Part shown: piece after piece, positions 39,560 through 49,282 of the stretch
How positions within the stretch are numbered: the first letter of the stretch is position 1
How the letters are laid out: each line of letters opens with the position of its first letter
The notes under the pieces: generated by a model
Database searches by the model: none
What the model saw: only the letters and a program-made list of their open reading frames with translations
What the model was told of the DNA's origin: nothing
Translations under genes and position numbers: made by a program
NCBI GenBank assembly: GCA_965205485.1
Contig: OZ242180.1
Span: 257,449 to 321,448, forward strand
Reading direction: 5' to 3'
DNA length: 64,000 nt
Origin: Candidatus Latescibacterota bacterium
Lineage (GTDB): Bacteria; Latescibacterota; UBA2968; GCA-2709665

Positions 39560-41194
39560 TCAATCGGCCTCGGCGGAAACCACTGAAACCGCCCCGTCCC
39601 CCTCTTTCAATACGTGGTGTTTCAATCCCGGAATGTGGATCTCCTGGATATATTCCCGCCAGTCGATGCGCGTCACGTCAAAGTTGAATTCCCTCTGATC
39701 TTCGGGATTCAGCGCCTCGAACAGCCGGCGGGTATTCTCCGTTTCGAACTCGCAATCGAGATGGGTGTACCCGCAATAGGTATCGACCAGGGACTCGAGC
39801 CGCTCAAGCACGGCTTCCATACCGGACACCCGGCGCCTGTAGCGGGAAACCCATCGGGCGGGCAGATAGTCCACGGCCGCCTTCAACAGGCTCAGGGGAA
39901 GCTTGTACTTCAGGGCGACCAGACAACGGAACCGCCGCTGGCTGATGAACTTCCAGGGCCGGACGTCGATGGGCCGCCCGGCTCGGTCCTGCATCGGCGA
40001 AGATTTGAAATACCCGTATACCAGTTCGACCATTTCGCTGGCCCGAACCGGGTTCTGTGAGCCCGAGGCCACGTGGTAGACCTTCATCTCCCCGGACCCG
40101 TGTACCTGCGGAAGAACCGCGGTGACGGCGTTGCTCAGGACGTCCACGGGTATGATATCCAGCACAATCCCGGGATCGATCGGGAAATTTGAAAGCCGGC
40201 CCTTGCCGTAGTGGACGATCAGCGGATCGGCGACTTTCAGGTCCTCCACCCAGCCGGGTTCCGGGTCCTCCAGGCTGCTCTCCACGATCGCCGGCCGGAC
40301 GATGACCGTCGGAAGGTCTCCCCGCAGTTTCACGACCAACTGTTCGCCCATCGCCTTGGTGAGGGTGTAGCTGTCGTTCCAGCCGTGACGCCTCGCACGC
40401 CGCATCCCTTCGTCCACCATCTGCTTCCGGATCCATCGCTGGCGAAGGGCTTCTACCTGGTGTGCCTTCCGGTAGTCGGTCACGCGTTTTCCGCGGTCCT
40501 GCCGCCGGAGCTGCTTCAGGAACGCCGCCTCGAGGCCGGGTTCCCTGGATGCCTCCTCGACTTCCCGTGTAAAGGCCCGGATAGCGTCAATCTCGTCCTG
40601 CAGGTCGAACCCGGCGGCCCTTCCGTTGATAAGGTCCGAAACGCTCTTGTTTTGGGGAAACGGCACTTCGGGTATCCGGCCGGTGCGCTTTCCGCTCACG
40701 TACGCGGTTGATACATGAACGAGCGCAGCTTTCCGGCAGGCTTTCGCGAAGGCGACGACGCGGGCGGCGCCCATCGCATTCTGTTCGAGGGCGCTGTCGA
40801 TGGGCTCGTCGAAGACCACGGTCCCGGCGTAATTGACGACAAAATCGACGTCTTCGGCGAGTCGCTCGCGTTGTTCGGTGGAAATCCCCAGTCCGTCTTC
40901 GGTCAGATCGCCGGCCACTGCCACGACCTTCTCGGACATCACCGATGGAAATGCCGCGCCCCACTTCGCTCGCAACCTTTCGAACGCGCGGGACTGAAGG
41001 ATTTCGGACTCCAGGCGTTCCGCATCCGAGACGATCTGGCCGTTGGAACGCGACCGGGGACGGATCAGGAGATAGATCCGCGCCACCTCGGGCGCGGAAA
41101 ACAGGACCTTCTCCACGAACCCCTTCGCCAGGAACCCCGTCGCGCCGGTTACAAAAAGCGTCTTGCCGCTCAGAAACTCTGCAATGGACTGCAT
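39560..41194 (-). CDS. fatty acyl-CoA reductase (FAR, NAD_binding_4 plus Sterile-like C-terminal domain)
   Basis: GKTLFVTGATGFLAKGFVEKVL...IYLLIRP...VHVSTAYV. The C-terminal FNFDVTRIDWREYIQEIHIPGLKHHVLK resembles the FAR C-terminal domain. Confidence 0.75.
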   Translation of the reverse strand: MQSIAEFLSGKTLFVTGATGFLAKGFVEKVLFSAPEVARIYLLIRPRSRSNGQIVSDAERLESEILQSRAFERLRAKWGAAFPSVMSEKVVAVAGDLTEDGLGISTEQRERLAEDVDFVVNYAGTVVFDEPIDSALEQNAMGAARVVAFAKACRKAALVHVSTAYVSGKRTGRIPEVPFPQNKSVSDLINGRAAGFDLQDEIDAIRAFTREVEEASREPGLEAAFLKQLRRQDRGKRVTDYRKAHQVEALRQRWIRKQMVDEGMRRARRHGWNDSYTLTKAMGEQLVVKLRGDLPTVIVRPAIVESSLEDPEPGWVEDLKVADPLIVHYGKGRLSNFPIDPGIVLDIIPVDVLSNAVTAVLPQVHGSGEMKVYHVASGSQNPVRASEMVELVYGYFKSSPMQDRAGRPIDVRPWKFISQRRFRCLVALKYKLPLSLLKAAVDYLPARWVSRYRRRVSGMEAVLERLESLVDTYCGYTHLDCEFETENTRRLFEALNPEDQREFNFDVTRIDWREYIQEIHIPGLKHHVLKEGDGAVSVVSAEAD

Positions 41195-41493
41195 AACTTC
41201 CCGAATTGGACAAAAAACCCGTTTCCCCTACCTCATTAGTCAGCCGCAACAATCCGGAAGAATCTCCGTCGTTGTTCTTCCGTCATCGCGCCGCGAGGTC
41301 GAGTGAACGGGACGTCATAAAATCGCTGAATCGCAATAACCAATGGCAACCGTAAACCATACCACCGGTGTTCGTTTACCAGATAAGGAAGGAAAGCCAA
41401 GATCCGCTTGGAGTCAAGGGAAATCTGGTTACGGACACTTTTGATTTGTCCTTTGGATTCTTTCCTCGTATATTTGGTATAAATGAGGAAGTG

Positions 41494-41802
41494 ATGTCTA
41501 TGAAATGGCTAAGAGAAAATGCAGCAGCAATTATGGCTATAATGGCTATTCTGACTCCTTTGCTGCTTTATGCTTCAAGCATAGATGGACGACTTGATAG
41601 CATAGAAAAGGATGTTTTGGTCATAAAGAAGGATCTTTCAGCGTTGAAGGGAGATCTTTCGGCGTTGAGGGGAGATTTCTCAGTGTTGAAGGGAGATCTT
41701 TCAGCGTTGAAAGGAGATTTTTCGGCGTTAAGAAAGGATCTTTCAGCCATTAAGCGTCATATAGGAGTTTCGTCGGCTTCAATTGCAACCAGCGAAAATT
41801 AG
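41494..41802 (+). CDS. small membrane-anchored coiled-coil protein built from six heptads
   Basis: 102 aa. An N-terminal TM segment (AAIMAIMAILTPLLLYA) is followed by KKDLSAL KGDLSAL RGDFSVL KGDLSAL KGDFSAL RKDLSAI. GAGGA lies upstream of ATG 41494. The sequence is low-GC. Confidence 0.6.
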   Translation: MSMKWLRENAAAIMAIMAILTPLLLYASSIDGRLDSIEKDVLVIKKDLSALKGDLSALRGDFSVLKGDLSALKGDFSALRKDLSAIKRHIGVSSASIATSEN

Positions 41803-41857
41803 ACTCAATCAAACCCACTAAATGGAAACTTCATCCAGTGGGTTTTAATCATTCTGG

Positions 41858-41905
41858 CAAAACAAACCGCTCAGTCACTCAATTGTGACTGAGCGGTTTG
41901 TTTTG
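41858..41905. terminator. bidirectional terminator (perfect 21-bp stem)
   Basis: CAAAACAAACCGCTCAGTCAC-TCAATT-GTGACTGAGCGGTTTGTTTTG, located between convergent genes. Confidence 0.75.
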
Positions 41906-41947
41906 CTGACCGGGAAGTTCATTACTCAATACAGGATGTCGGGATTT

Positions 41948-42130
41948 TTAGGTCGTTTTTGGACATTTCGAGACTTTTTCGGGATTTCCCATCAGTGTCT
42001 TGCCTGAATCCTCCCATACCGCTTCATCTTCCGCCGTTGCTTCGTATTCTGTCTGTGATTCGTAATGTCCCAGAAGGCGTCGGACACGGTCCTCGTCCCA
42101 ACCATCCGGAAATCTGGTCGCGTTCTTCAT
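41948..42130 (-). CDS. small acidic antitoxin-like protein
   Basis: MKNATRFPDGWDEDRVRRLLGHYESQTEYEATAEDEAVWED... I recall this WxEExV..HYE.Q.E.E motif from small proteins paired with toxins, but I cannot name the family. Its ATG overlaps the upstream frame stop (ATGA). Confidence 0.45.
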   Translation of the reverse strand: MKNATRFPDGWDEDRVRRLLGHYESQTEYEATAEDEAVWEDSGKTLMGNPEKVSKCPKTT

Positions 42131-42347
42131 CTTCCTCTCCTTCTCATCCGCCTGCGATACGCAATTGGCGATTTACCGTTCAGTTCGTAGGCGGTAATGA
42201 CAAATGCACAGTTCGGTTCGGGATCCGGTACATAGATTGGTCGGAGATATCAACCTCCTCGAATCCGTCCAATTGCAACACGCGATCCTTCTCGACTTGG
42301 TCCGTTTTTGACCGGCACAGAGGATACCGTCTCGGCTGGATGATCAC
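42127..42347 (-). pseudogene. small ORF split between two frames (possible frameshifted toxin-like gene)
   Basis: Frame A (GTG 42347, directly after the TAA of the 367-aa gene) reads VIIQPRRYPLCRSKTDQVEKDRVLQLDGFEEVDISDQS.. and stops at 42180. Frame B is open 42249-42127 and reads ..IYVPDPEPNCAFVITAYELNGKSPIAYRRRMRRRGR, ending in an ATGA overlap with the next gene. Confidence 0.4.
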
Positions 42348-43451
42348 TTAAAAATACTTTCTGCGAATCAACTCGTTTACTGTTCGCTGCAGATCTGCCA
42401 GAAATTTTCCATCAATATTGGCCGTCCACCAATGTGCAATATCATTCCTGTATTCCGTCAACTCCTGTAGGGTCTTTTTGCCGGCCACAACTACATTGTC
42501 ATTCCTGATATTTCCCCCATAGCCTAGGTACTTCGCTCCAGCCTCTACCAACGACTGCCACAACCGCAAGTATTGGAGGCGCTTGTAAGAGTCGTCTTTT
42601 TGCTCATCGCAATACATTGAGTTAATTAGAAGTGACACGTGCGGAGTCTCAACGTCCTGCTTCATAGCAACAATCGCTTTCCCAATCTCTGCCACCCTGC
42701 AGCCGAACGACTCGGCATCCATCATCTTCACTGTTTCCACCTGTACTGACGCCATAGTTTGCTTCATGACGACGAAACGGCCGTCGTCGGTTACCAGACA
42801 GCGCTGATCCACATATCTCTTTATTGGATCCGGTGTCCTCTGTGCTACCCGGATTCCTGCAAGTATCAGATTCACCGTCTGCTGGCTGTTGGGAAGTTTC
42901 GGCCACGCACCGTCACTTGTAGCCCACGCGGAAATGTACTTCCTATTCTCCCTACCTCCAATCAACGCAGGTATCTTCTCGCCATTTCGGACGAATACTT
43001 CGTCCGAAATGCTACATTCACCCTTAATCATCTCAACCGGCTCCAAAGCACGATTCTCCTCAATCACCAAAAACACAGGTACGCGACCCTTTTGTTGGGA
43101 TCTGACATTTTCGTTCGTCTGGCCAACAACGTGTCGCAAGCAAGGACTGATAGAGTAATGCCTACCACGTGTCCACTTTGCAAAGTAGTCGATCAAATTT
43201 GACGTGACACCCGCTTTAACAGACGACGAGTCATAAATCTTGTAATGATGTTCGCTTGAAGCTGGATGCAGATTGATCCTTGGAAACTCGAAAATCTGGG
43301 TTCGGCAATACCCTGTGATTGTACAACAGAACTTCGTTTCTCCTGTGTTCGCATACCCTCTCTGCACCCATGCTAGCGTAGTGCTCGCCTCCTGAGAGAC
43401 CGTTTGGAGCGACTTCTCACGATCCGCTACTGTTCGGTTATTTCTAGACAT
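42348..43451 (-). CDS. hypothetical protein with a C-terminal HEPN-like domain (Rx4H: RNDIAH)
   Basis: 367 aa, low-GC. The C-terminal ~80 aa read RLQYLRLWQSLVEAGAKYLGY...LQELTEYRNDIAHWW...FLADLQRTVNELIRR. The RNDIAH motif is encoded at 42432-42449. The N-terminal ~280 aa were not recognised. AAGGGGA lies upstream of ATG 43451. Confidence 0.6.
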   Translation of the reverse strand: MSRNNRTVADREKSLQTVSQEASTTLAWVQRGYANTGETKFCCTITGYCRTQIFEFPRINLHPASSEHHYKIYDSSSVKAGVTSNLIDYFAKWTRGRHYSISPCLRHVVGQTNENVRSQQKGRVPVFLVIEENRALEPVEMIKGECSISDEVFVRNGEKIPALIGGRENRKYISAWATSDGAWPKLPNSQQTVNLILAGIRVAQRTPDPIKRYVDQRCLVTDDGRFVVMKQTMASVQVETVKMMDAESFGCRVAEIGKAIVAMKQDVETPHVSLLINSMYCDEQKDDSYKRLQYLRLWQSLVEAGAKYLGYGGNIRNDNVVVAGKKTLQELTEYRNDIAHWWTANIDGKFLADLQRTVNELIRRKYF

Positions 43452-43571
43452 AATGGATTTTTCCCCTTGGATGCTAAGATTCGAGTTCAGCCACCATCAC
43501 TTCGCCACCCGAATTGTCCCTCGATTTTTCGTAAGGTAATATCGCGTAATATGGGACGTATAGGGTAAAGA

Positions 43572-44336
43572 TTAGACGTACCCGCCCCGCCTCACAAACT
43601 CCAGCCAGTTTCTGAACTCGATCTTCCTGAAGTTATTATCTTCCCTCTCTTTCTTCTTCAAGCTCTCCAGCAGATTCCGGAAGTCATCCTCCGTGAACAT
43701 CGACGTATAATTCGACGTCCAGTGCAGCATCAGCTTACCGATGTAGTCGTAGGGCAGTTCGGGATGGTATTGCGTGCAGGTGATGCGCCGGTCCCTTGAT
43801 ACGACGGCCTGCAGCGTTGTCGCATTTTCTGCGACAATCTCGAACTCCCGCGGCAGCCGGGCAGTCTCGTCGAAGTGATGGGCCGGCGCATCGAACGTGT
43901 GCGGTTTGCCACGATACAGGGTCCTGGAAAAGTCCAGCGATCGTACCGTGATGTCTCGTGCGATGCCGATTTCCGGACGGCGCGCCGGCGCCACCTCCCC
44001 GCCGCAAACGGTCGTGATGACCTGAAATCCCCAGCAGCTTCCCCAGACGTGGGGTACATCCGTGAGTACCCGCTCGCCCAACTCCAACTGACGCCTATTG
44101 AATGGATTGTCTTCGTAGATGTTGCCGCCCCCGCCGGTCCAGACCACGCCATCGTACCTGCTGAAGTCCAGGTCTGACGTTCCGGCGTCGCCATACGTGT
44201 GGACAATCCGAACTTCGGTTTCAGGCTGGTTTTCCCGAACGAGCGCCTCGAACACGCGTGCCTGCTCCTCCACCCCCGCACGCGCGTGCGACCGATTCCC
44301 TTCCCGGGTCCAGCCGTCGACGATCAGGATCCGCAT
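43572..44336 (-). CDS. class I glutamine amidotransferase-like protein
   Basis: MRILIVDG...GVVWTGGGGNIY...VWGSCWGFQVI (nucleophile elbow). Confidence 0.65.
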   Translation of the reverse strand: MRILIVDGWTREGNRSHARAGVEEQARVFEALVRENQPETEVRIVHTYGDAGTSDLDFSRYDGVVWTGGGGNIYEDNPFNRRQLELGERVLTDVPHVWGSCWGFQVITTVCGGEVAPARRPEIGIARDITVRSLDFSRTLYRGKPHTFDAPAHHFDETARLPREFEIVAENATTLQAVVSRDRRITCTQYHPELPYDYIGKLMLHWTSNYTSMFTEDDFRNLLESLKKKEREDNNFRKIEFRNWLEFVRRGGYV

Positions 44337-44343
44337 CTCCCCG

Positions 44344-45249
44344 TCACCTCTCTGCAAGAAGCCATTCGTCACCGATCTCGATCTCTCCGGTTGCAGTCAA
44401 GACGGCAGGGCCGCCCACGTCCACGGAAACGACCTTTCCGTTGCGCAGATGAGCCGCCGCGTCCATTCTGCTGGGGCGGCCGATTTTCACGCCCTGCGTT
44501 ACCGACAGCTCCAGTACGCCCGATTGGATGCCGCTTCTCAGTCCGGCGACGCGGACAAGCGCGGCGACTGCGCTGCCCGTGGCAGGGTCTTCGTCAATGC
44601 CGTGTGAGGGCGCCGACATCCTCGCGTAGATCTCCGCTCCGGATTTCAGCTCGCCCGCGAAGAAAAAGATATCCGACGACCGTGCATCGGAAAGCGTTCT
44701 GCCCCACGCCTGCTTGTCCACGGATGCTCGGTCCACGGCCTTTCTCGACACCAGATGCGCGAAACAGAAGTTCAGTCCCACGCCTGCGAAGAACCCGTCA
44801 AGGACGTCGCCCGCGTCGAGGGACAGGACTTCCGCAAGGGACGCAGTCGAGGGTCCTTCCGCCGCGTAATCCAATGGCGCATCGCTGGTCAATGTACCGT
44901 ACAATACGCCGTCCTGATTTGAGATCCTCACAGGAATCCGGCCGACATTCTCTTCGAGAATAACGCAATCCGAATCCGCATGTCCGCTATAGCGAAGAGC
45001 GCATGCCGTACCGACCGTGGGATGACCCGCAAAGTCCACCTCGGCTGCAGGCGTGAAAATTCGCACCCGGGCCGCCGCGAAATCATTTTCGTGCGGAAAC
45101 ACGAACGTGGTTTCGGAAAAATTGAATTCGCGGGCGACCTTCTGCATGCCATCCGCGCTGAGACCCCTCGCATCGGGCAGGACAGCCAGCTGGTTTCCCC
45201 CGAATCCCGTCCGGGTGAAGACATCCAGGATGTAGAATCGATATTTCAA
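44344..45249 (-). CDS. PhzF family isomerase
   Basis: YRFYILDVFTRTGFGGNQLAVL...FNFSETTFV...FAGHPTVGTA. The start is uncertain (TTG 45249 or GTG 45306). The longer track ORF runs into the REP element and is unlikely. Confidence 0.75.
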   Translation of the reverse strand: MKYRFYILDVFTRTGFGGNQLAVLPDARGLSADGMQKVAREFNFSETTFVFPHENDFAAARVRIFTPAAEVDFAGHPTVGTACALRYSGHADSDCVILEENVGRIPVRISNQDGVLYGTLTSDAPLDYAAEGPSTASLAEVLSLDAGDVLDGFFAGVGLNFCFAHLVSRKAVDRASVDKQAWGRTLSDARSSDIFFFAGELKSGAEIYARMSAPSHGIDEDPATGSAVAALVRVAGLRSGIQSGVLELSVTQGVKIGRPSRMDAAAHLRNGKVVSVDVGGPAVLTATGEIEIGDEWLLAER

Positions 45250-48983: not shown

Positions 48984-49089
48984 GACGGAAAATCGCGGGC
49001 GAATTTACAAAAAATGCCGAGACCCCAGTGACGGATCGCGCACCGGTGCCACGACTTCATTTTACTCCCATCATATTGTTATTTATTTC

Positions 49090-49282
49090 TTTACGCCCTT
49101 TTTCTTTCTCGCCAAAGAAAAAGGGCCAAAAAGAACGGCGCCGCTCGGCGCGGAGCCGGTTTTTCCGTGAATCACCTCAGAGGTAAGAAAGAAATGAGTG
49201 CCCTACATGCCCCTGAAGCATATCAATATTAAGGTGCTGGACGGATTAACACGGAAAAACCCCCCACGCCACAACCGAGCGG
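49090..49282 (+). repeat. structured intergenic element, copy S (module 1 at 49090-49180, module 2 at 49239-49282)
   Basis: Module 1 is near-identical to the reverse complement of 35400-35489. Module 2 (GGACGGATTAACACGGAAAAACCCCCC...) matches the reverse complement of 35299-35342. Confidence 0.7.

Follow-up and report, generated by a model that had tools for sequence, protein, structure and literature searches.

Does a 367-amino-acid (aa) protein with a HEPN-like motif, encoded in a compositionally foreign island of a Candidatus Latescibacterota genome, belong to a defence or addiction module, and does it act with partner genes or alone? The question arises from a stretch of 64,000 nucleotides (nt) of contig OZ242180.1 (assembly GCA_965205485.1, positions 257,449 to 321,448 of the forward strand), referred to here as the window. 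A reading of its letters and open reading frames (ORFs) made without database searches (the sequence-only reading) had proposed a tightly packed module of three minus-strand genes led by this protein. The analysis presented here points to a different arrangement: the C-terminal ~125 residues of the protein are very probably homologous to HEPN domains, no neighbouring gene accompanies the family consistently, and the two small ORFs beside it in the window are the wreck of an unrelated toxin-antitoxin pair. A HEPN ribonuclease (RNase) that serves as a stand-alone defence or conflict gene is, in our judgement, a slightly better than even bet. The gene and its parts occupy the following positions, of which that of the codons of R335 and H340 agrees with the one given by the sequence-only reading.

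42348-43451, minus strand: the 367-aa gene, core of the finding, encoding a novel N-terminal domain and a C-terminal HEPN-like domain.
42726-43451, minus strand: N-terminal alpha/beta domain (residues 1-242), proposed to be a sensor or regulatory domain, as delimited in a confident AlphaFold2 model.
42351-42725, minus strand: C-terminal helical domain (residues 243-367), a probable HEPN RNase domain according to consensus profile matches and helix order.
42432-42449, minus strand: codons of the Rx4H motif R335-N-D-I-A-H340, recognised by conservation in the alignments.
43452-43571, minus strand: intergenic region, presumed to hold the promoter and ribosome-binding site of the 367-aa gene.

The gene call of the source genome itself (P0032) comprises only 232 aa, 63% of the 367-aa ORF; because the homologues align from residue 1, the full frame is taken to be the real gene. 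Scans against Pfam, PADLOC, NCBIfam and PHROGs gave no match to the 367-aa protein. Among 5.8 billion clustered proteins, 438 relatives were found, all of them without a name or a Pfam domain; nearly all are 366-370 aa long, with 60-78% identity. When 1.84 billion representatives were searched exhaustively with a HMMER profile, only 216 proteins were obtained at E ≤ 0.001; all full-length members among these span both halves of the protein, and the family is therefore small and architecturally fixed. Sequence-profile searches of the PDB with the 367-aa protein returned only FAF1 and ribosomal protein L20, both of which were rejected as spurious. Residue conservation was read from a close set of 27 homologues and from a diverse alignment of 38 sequences with identity down to 17%. 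With the latter, AlphaFold2 gave a confident model, with a predicted local distance difference test score (pLDDT) of 86.5 and a predicted template-modelling score of 0.86, compared with a pLDDT of 36 for an earlier model from a shallow alignment.

The HEPN domain is defined by a core of four helices, the second and third of which are separated by a variable insert, and by an Rx4-6H motif, placed at the end of the third core helix, in which the residue directly after R is polar and mostly N, D or H (PMC3710099). The C-terminal domain reproduces these features closely. In the 38-sequence alignment, H340 is the sole invariant residue apart from the start methionine, R335 and A339 are conserved in at least 90% of the sequences, and the position after R is N, D or H in nearly all members, being RT, RG or RK in a few; in the 27 close homologues both R335 and H340 are invariant. 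Of the RNDIAH residues, whose lack of conservation, together with the lack of a predicted HEPN fold, the sequence-only reading had named as a refutation of its claim, R335, A339 and H340 are thus conserved. The predicted helices comprise residues 287-309, an insert or loop at 310-327, a helix at 328-338 that ends in R335..H340, and a final helix at 348-366. Judged by the order of secondary structure in the model, this arrangement would agree with the published HEPN topology.

Profile comparisons point in the same direction. The C-terminal consensus of distant subgroups of the family matches PF18737 (HEPN_MAE_28990) over 116 residues with an E-value of 5.3e-8 and 33.7 bits, above the cut-off of 26.8. 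Consensus sequences emitted from C-terminal hidden Markov models also match PF18735, PF12358 (DUF3644), PF18730 and PF18731, which makes five HEPN families in total, RiboL-PSP-HEPN, DUF3644, Cthe_2314 and Swt1 being those named among the matches; DUF3644 has itself been tied to a HEPN family (PMC3710099). Weak HEPN matches were obtained with 12 of the 38 individual members (RiboL-PSP-HEPN in 7, MAE_28990 in 3 and Cthe_2314 in 2), and no other family recurs in more than 2 of them. Reversed and shuffled consensus controls gave no significant HEPN match. When R and H of the motif were both replaced by A in the consensus, the PF18737 match persisted over the same span with 17 bits, so the similarity extends beyond the two catalytic residues. 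The PF18737 threshold is passed only by the consensus of distant subgroups; the window protein gives no match to the model and is therefore a distant relative and no member by Pfam's rule. A database search with the C-terminal profile found only 7 fragments of the same family and no bridge to annotated HEPN proteins. Taken together, the conservation of Rx4H, the helix order, the consensus matches and the clean controls support the HEPN domain that the sequence-only reading had claimed, and by sequence the family would stand nearest to the MAE_28990/MAE_18760 clade, outside it by the Pfam threshold.

The N-terminal domain has no such relatives. In the model it consists of two long beta-hairpins (residues 39-61 and 124-150), further strands, and helices at 86-119 and 190-204. 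Its consensus sequences gave zero Pfam matches at E ≤ 10, and Foldseek comparison of the full-length model with the PDB and BFVD returned nothing significant. The description of an unrecognised N-terminal region therefore stands for ~240 residues, where ~280 had been proposed. A relationship with RiboL-PSP was considered and rejected, since the PF18735 matches are confined to the HEPN part and the N-domain consensus is empty. C146 and P184 are the only nearly invariant residues of this domain across the family, which leaves no obvious catalytic constellation in it; a regulatory or sensing role would be expected by analogy with other HEPN fusions.

How the gene is distributed bears directly on its function. 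Searching 185,579 GTDB species genomes gave 51 loci (labelled L001 and upwards), most of them 50-70% identical to the window protein and scattered across phyla, including Chloroflexota. According to the labels of the metagenome-assembled genomes (MAGs), the carriers are Dehalococcoidia, Caldilineaceae, Longimicrobiales/Gemmatimonadota, Acidobacteriota, Latescibacterota, Thermodesulfobacteriota, Binatia, and Alpha- and Gammaproteobacteria. The guanine-plus-cytosine (GC) content of the gene averages 52±3%, compared with 60±5% for its flanks; the gene is the lower of the two in 40 of the 41 loci compared, most extremely at 44% next to flanks of 71% and at 47% next to flanks of 69%. One Dehalococcoidia genome (OZ240229.1) carries two diverged copies, L017 and L029, with 62% and 55% identity to the window protein. 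Disruption affects at least 14 of the 51 loci (~27%): in three unrelated genomes (L036, L041 and L049) an insertion of 1-4 kb interrupts the gene somewhere between residues ~200 and ~290, one copy has an internal deletion (L047), two have frameshifts (L037 and L039), and the others are fragments (L048, L051, L054-L058 and L060). The family behaves as an accessory, laterally moving and often-lost gene, in line with the foreign composition that the sequence-only reading had noticed in the island. Several MAG names (RHO2, COS1, SB0675) resemble bins of marine-sponge microbiome studies, and going by these names the carriers may be marine-sponge symbionts; one such study reports that defence genes are enriched and that lateral transfer occurs among symbionts (PMC8163846).

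If the protein were one component of a module, the same partners should recur beside it. For this comparison, every ORF of 50 aa or more that lies up to 3.5 kb from the gene was clustered across ~45 loci, and no neighbour family is common to more than 4 of them, those 4 being syntenic Dehalococcoidia. Likewise, among 142 flanking ORFs of 38 loci, chosen with a codon-position GC filter that excludes antisense artefacts, no Pfam family occurs in more than 4. The commonest flanking families are HTH_3/HTH_31, N6_Mtase, Peptidase_M78, DDE transposases and integrases; interspersed with them are housekeeping genes, among them those for transporters and aminotransferases. Single contexts vary accordingly, from a prophage integrase and terminase (L001), an HTH-M78 regulator with HicB (L002), an integrase with AlpA (L006), Fic, PIN-FitA and a methyltransferase (L007), and transposases (L008) to sugar metabolism only (L005). 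By raw counts, neighbours linked to defence or mobility (integrase, transposase, HTH-M78, N6-methyltransferase, PIN, Fic, HicB) occur at a minority of loci. A regulator combining HTH_3/HTH_31 with Peptidase_M78 (ImmA/IrrE, CapP-like) lies immediately upstream in 3 of the 38 loci, including L012 and L013 (the latter identical with L002); it is the most frequent neighbour type and too rare to count as a partner.

The DNA around the gene is equally inconstant. Between the window and nearly all other loci, homology starts no more than ~17 nt from the ATG and stops no more than ~15 nt from the stop codon. No tandem repeats, such as those beside the toxin gene in systems with RNA antitoxins (AbiF, ToxIN), flank the 367-aa gene, no Rfam family was found there, and no flanking DNA is conserved. 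No adjacent nucleotidyltransferase (MNT) antitoxin appears among the top flanking families of the ~45 loci, and the small ORFs of the window accompany the gene only in the window lineage. The neighbourhood survey that the sequence-only reading had called for thus gave, by raw counts, what may be a modest enrichment in defence genes, many housekeeping contexts and no conserved partner. Since the gene is solo across these loci, an addiction module with an antitoxin, as that reading had also envisaged, is unlikely.

What, then, are the small ORFs that follow the gene in the window? Two reading frames matter here, both outside the 367-aa system.

42127-42300, minus strand: remnant of a DUF4258-type toxin gene, its C-terminal 57 codons, with an in-frame TGA at 42250-42252.
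41948-42130, minus strand: 60-aa acidic ORF, an orphan and decaying antitoxin-like partner from a family of 65-66-aa proteins.

The ORF of 55 aa that had been noted to begin with GTG directly on the TAA stop of the 367-aa gene (42180-42347) is present, and yet it is a spurious frame rather than a gene, because a 1-nt indel disrupts it in the close relative L040. The frame that is conserved in relatives is the one at 42127-42300, which reads ...REGSRVAIGR.RGG(stop)YLRPIYVPDPEPN..FVITAYEL.GK..AYRRRMRRRG(stop). Through its final TGA this frame overlaps the first codon of the 60-aa ORF as ATGA; the overlap exists as described, the partner in it being this frame with its in-frame stop and not the 55-aa GTG ORF. 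The frame gives a weak DUF4258 match and shares 75% identity with residues 38-94 of the toxin that L061 encodes as an intact 94-aa gene. The first 37 codons are missing, and the 367-aa gene ends at precisely this point; its arrival may therefore have truncated a resident toxin gene. The 60-aa ORF is 70% identical to the L061 partner over its first 50 residues and then diverges, its C-terminus being frameshifted; it differs from L040 by an 8-nt indel and is degraded in L008.

Intact pairs of 94-aa and 66-aa genes joined by an ATGA overlap are present in L061 and L062, at 2220-2701 in each, and the HEPN gene is absent from both. In L062 (Desulfatiglans) the 94-aa gene carries a weak DUF4258 annotation and overlaps the downstream 66-aa gene by 4 nt, and in L061 the pair adjoins FAR and occupies the same site of the chromosome as its window counterpart. 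The window frame and its partner are clearly homologous to this pair and share its ATGA junction, whereas the truncation, the in-frame TGA and the frameshift mean that neither an intact toxin nor an intact partner ORF is left, so that the window copy is a pseudogene pair. Judged by these alignments, the small ORFs are a dead DUF4258-type toxin and its decaying partner, formerly resident at the site and unrelated to the 367-aa gene. The trio is consequently no single module, and the 60-aa ORF, which had been taken for an antitoxin of the 367-aa protein, is the remnant partner of another toxin.

The site itself has a history of exchange. It is bounded by two ordinary genes, both found at the positions first given (the FAR gene ending at 41194, the amidotransferase gene starting at 43572).

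39560-41194, minus strand: FAR, a fatty-acyl-CoA reductase gene (PF07993 and PF03015).
43572-44372, minus strand: class-I glutamine amidotransferase (GATase) gene, the other flank of the island.

A PhzF-like gene comes after the GATase gene. In windows of 300 nt, the island (~41200-43650) has 41-52% GC, compared with 58-65% on both sides and a mean of 60.2% over the 64 kb, so the sharp drop between the two genes that the sequence-only reading had sampled is real; the region is compositionally foreign, and the horizontal acquisition of the 367-aa gene is supported. The relative L008 shares PhzF, GATase and the 367-aa gene with the window at ~81% nucleotide identity, followed downstream by insertion sequence elements and then by 206 nt that are left of the toxin region. 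What L040 has in common with the window is the gene, the relic of the toxin-antitoxin pair, a hairpin, a coiled-coil gene and FAR; its upstream genes differ. In L061 an unrelated 401-aa ORF replaces the HEPN-like gene, together with the intact toxin-antitoxin pair and methyltransferase-like ORFs. The GATase-FAR interval is a variable hotspot in this lineage.

The gene, too, is a mosaic. Comparison of the window with L040 gives a nucleotide identity of 95-98% in FAR and the coiled-coil gene, ~85% in the relic, 88-95% in the last 300 nt of the 367-aa gene, 61-81% in its first 800 nt and zero upstream. At the protein level (L040, 6001-7101), the identity is 58-71% over residues 1-266 and 91% over residues 267-367, which places an intragenic recombination breakpoint near residue 267, at the domain junction. 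The L040 difference had raised the idea of a hypervariable sensor, which was rejected: the N- and C-domains are equally conserved across the family (69% and 71% among close homologues, 29% and 31% in the diverse alignment), and the mosaic is thus a recombination tract and no general hypervariability of the N-domain. The insertions that split the gene in L036, L041 and L049 lie near the position of this breakpoint in the window gene.

The remaining part of the island holds a hairpin and a convergent gene.

41857-41906: perfect inverted repeat between the convergent genes, with 22-nt arms at 41857-41878 and 41885-41906, kept in L040.
41494-41802, plus strand: 102-aa membrane-anchored coiled-coil ORF, outside the 367-aa system and the lowest-GC piece of the island.

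The inverted repeat is likely a bidirectional terminator. Its pairing is perfect, as the sequence-only reading had stated, with arms of 22 nt where 21 bp had been given; a simple terminator scan left it uncalled because the T-runs sit within the extended stem. The convergent ORF is also as described, with an N-terminal hydrophobic helix and a 21-bp tandem repeat of 5.5 copies (41632-41747) that encodes an array of DLSALKG heptads. It is 95-98% identical in L040 apart from an indel of one 21-nt repeat unit, so the copy number of the repeat varies. Its database matches, to DUF2730 (E 2.3e-4) and to the PADLOC 2TM 'Effector' model, are weak and below the respective cut-offs. The coiled-coil gene is separate cargo at the same variable site.

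As for the borders of the island, a tRNA scan found no tRNA gene in the 64 kb and a repeat search found no direct repeats flanking the island, in keeping with the earlier description; an Rfam scan of the island matched no family. The 120-nt gap between the 367-aa gene and GATase is kept only in the syntenic relative L008, and a promoter scan of 43452-43571 gave no promoter-like site beyond chance level. A weak 25-nt inverted repeat, 72% complementary (41195-41219 and 41895-41919), encloses the hairpin together with the coiled-coil gene; it could delimit a small inserted unit or be due to chance. Elsewhere in the window, a 67-nt segment (49076-49142) recurs at two places in L008 with 97% and 88% identity and, weakly and inverted, at a third, and it looks like a short dispersed repeat common to related genomes.

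Several known systems resemble the 367-aa protein in part. The best C-terminal profile match is to the MAE_28990/MAE_18760 HEPN families (PF18737), with which the protein shares Rx4H with N or D after R, and MAE_18760 proteins carry varied N-terminal fusions, one of them beta-rich (PMC3710099). However, the partners of these families, a ParB nuclease with a methylase or an operon with a ParA/Soj ATPase, are absent at the 367-aa loci, the window protein gives no match to the Pfam model, and the N-domain has no Pfam match. ApeA shares the single polypeptide, the unrecognised N-terminal region, the C-terminal HEPN domain and the lack of a partner gene; it acts by abortive infection, its RNase being activated by deoxydinucleotides that are sensed outside the active site (bioRxiv 10.64898/2026.01.26.701840). 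In contrast to the 367-aa protein with its beta-rich N-domain, ApeA has ~583 aa, is mostly alpha-helical, is divided into N-terminal, Mid and split-HEPN parts and assembles into decamers or dodecamers, and the ApeA models of PADLOC and Pfam do not match the 367-aa protein. DARNA (PD-T7-3) is likewise a stand-alone HEPN protein with a separate sensor domain, a tRNA nuclease whose non-catalytic domain senses single-stranded DNA on the single-stranded DNA-binding protein of the phage (bioRxiv 10.64898/2026.02.22.705581), although its HEPN domain is N-terminal, its C-terminal sensor is all-helical, its length is 456 aa, and no sequence similarity to the 367-aa protein was detected.

AbiJ, AbiD, AbiF, AbiU2 and AbiV combine HEPN with family-specific N-terminal domains, often as solo genes, and are implicated in abortive infection (PMC3710099); none of the lactococcal Abi HEPN families gave a profile match to the 367-aa protein, and whereas AbiF-type systems have RNA antitoxins, the 367-aa loci show no conserved flanking RNA or repeat. 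The HEPN-MNT pairs (HepT/MntA) also have a HEPN RNase toxin, a minimal one, with an Rx4H motif, but they require an adjacent nucleotidyltransferase, which no locus has, and HepT lacks a large N-terminal domain. As a domain architecture, the family is new to the well-known class of HEPN fusion proteins.

Some results weigh against a defence RNase, and they feed two of the alternatives. The window protein has no Pfam HEPN match at E ≤ 1, no PADLOC model fits it, Foldseek found no HEPN or other significant match either for the confident full-length model (PDB and BFVD) or for the pLDDT-36 model (PDB), and the profile matches depend on artificial consensus sequences; the profile and structure comparisons proposed by the sequence-only reading thus gave matches for the family consensus in Pfam and none for the window protein in Pfam or Foldseek. 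In addition, many homologues are flanked purely by housekeeping genes, the enrichment in defence islands appears modest, and no relatives were found among IMG/VR viral contigs, GenBank phages or PLSDB plasmids. From the former set of results, it could be argued that no HEPN RNase is present at the C-terminus and that the Rx4H-like motif has another role, for example the binding of a ligand or nucleotide in a helical bundle, in a protein with a non-nuclease function, the more so as some HEPN domains are non-catalytic (PMC3710099). Nonetheless, five HEPN families are the top consensus matches, one of them above its cut-off and with negative controls, R and H are conserved family-wide with the typical polar residue after R, the position of the motif fits the HEPN definition, and non-catalytic HEPN domains have usually lost the motif (PMC3710099), which makes a non-nuclease domain quite unlikely. 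The latter set, together with the absence of a PADLOC match and the full-length conservation at 60-78% identity, would suit a HEPN protein that serves in housekeeping or niche adaptation, for instance by processing RNA or by a stress-induced control of growth. This role appears unlikely for a gene that occurs in 51 of 185,579 species genomes, patchily across phyla and with a GC content consistently below that of its host, that is disrupted at ~27% of its loci, is present twice in one genome and occupies a site that varies between close relatives, and that has integrases, transposases and toxin-antitoxin genes near several of its loci.

Two further alternatives were considered. In the proposal of the sequence-only reading, the 367-aa HEPN protein would be the toxin of a three-gene toxin-antitoxin operon and the small ORFs its antitoxin or adaptor; the same-strand packing, the TAAGTG and ATGA junctions and the acidic character of the 60-aa ORF all speak for it, and the layout is kept in L040 and partly in L008. 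Such an operon is nevertheless highly improbable and largely refuted, given that the small ORFs are absent beside the gene in all other lineages, that the 55-aa ORF is broken in L040 and the 60-aa ORF frameshifted at its C-terminus, and that the conserved frame is a truncated DUF4258-type toxin with a stop, of which L061 and L062 carry the intact pair without the HEPN gene. The gene could also be, or belong to, a selfish mobile unit of the size of one gene, which spreads by recombination and persists by post-segregational killing or by killing of competitors and does not protect the host. The almost exact restriction of inter-locus homology to the ORF, the unrelated insertion sites, the coincidence of its arrival with the truncation of the resident toxin, the intragenic recombination and the frequent decay would all be expected of such a unit, but no transposase, integrase, terminal repeat or target-site duplication accompanies the gene, and the loss of homology in the flanks is also expected from the faster divergence of non-coding DNA at 60-70% identity; we regard it as very unlikely.

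For the preferred reading, a stand-alone HEPN RNase in defence or conflict, the protein would most likely be a single-protein, ApeA-like abortive-infection RNase. Two copies of the 367-aa protein would dimerise through their HEPN domains, and their Rx4H motifs would together make up a single, metal-independent RNase site. The N-domain would keep the enzyme off until it senses an infection cue, which could be a ligand, a nucleic acid or a phage protein. The active enzyme would then cut cellular RNA, usually tRNA anticodon loops or mRNA, and thereby abort the infection. This sequence of events is drawn from established HEPN biology, with ApeA and DARNA as precedents that differ from the 367-aa protein in size, fold and domain order. 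That the family represents an undescribed single-gene abortive-infection system, in which the N-domain is both a new fold and a new infection sensor and which has spread laterally among bacteria of one habitat, is a conjecture that we put forward tentatively.

HEPN RNases joined to family-specific sensors are a recurring design in prokaryotic immunity, and the solved sensors, those of ApeA and DARNA, each revealed a new mode of infection recognition. The locus illustrates how one site between two housekeeping genes gains, swaps and erodes conflict genes. Moreover, the family is confined to uncultivated lineages and lies outside catalogues of the PADLOC type, and it shows what such catalogues miss. 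Being compact at 367 aa, well conserved and free of partners, with an N-domain that has no detectable relative, this protein is a tractable candidate for another trigger mechanism.

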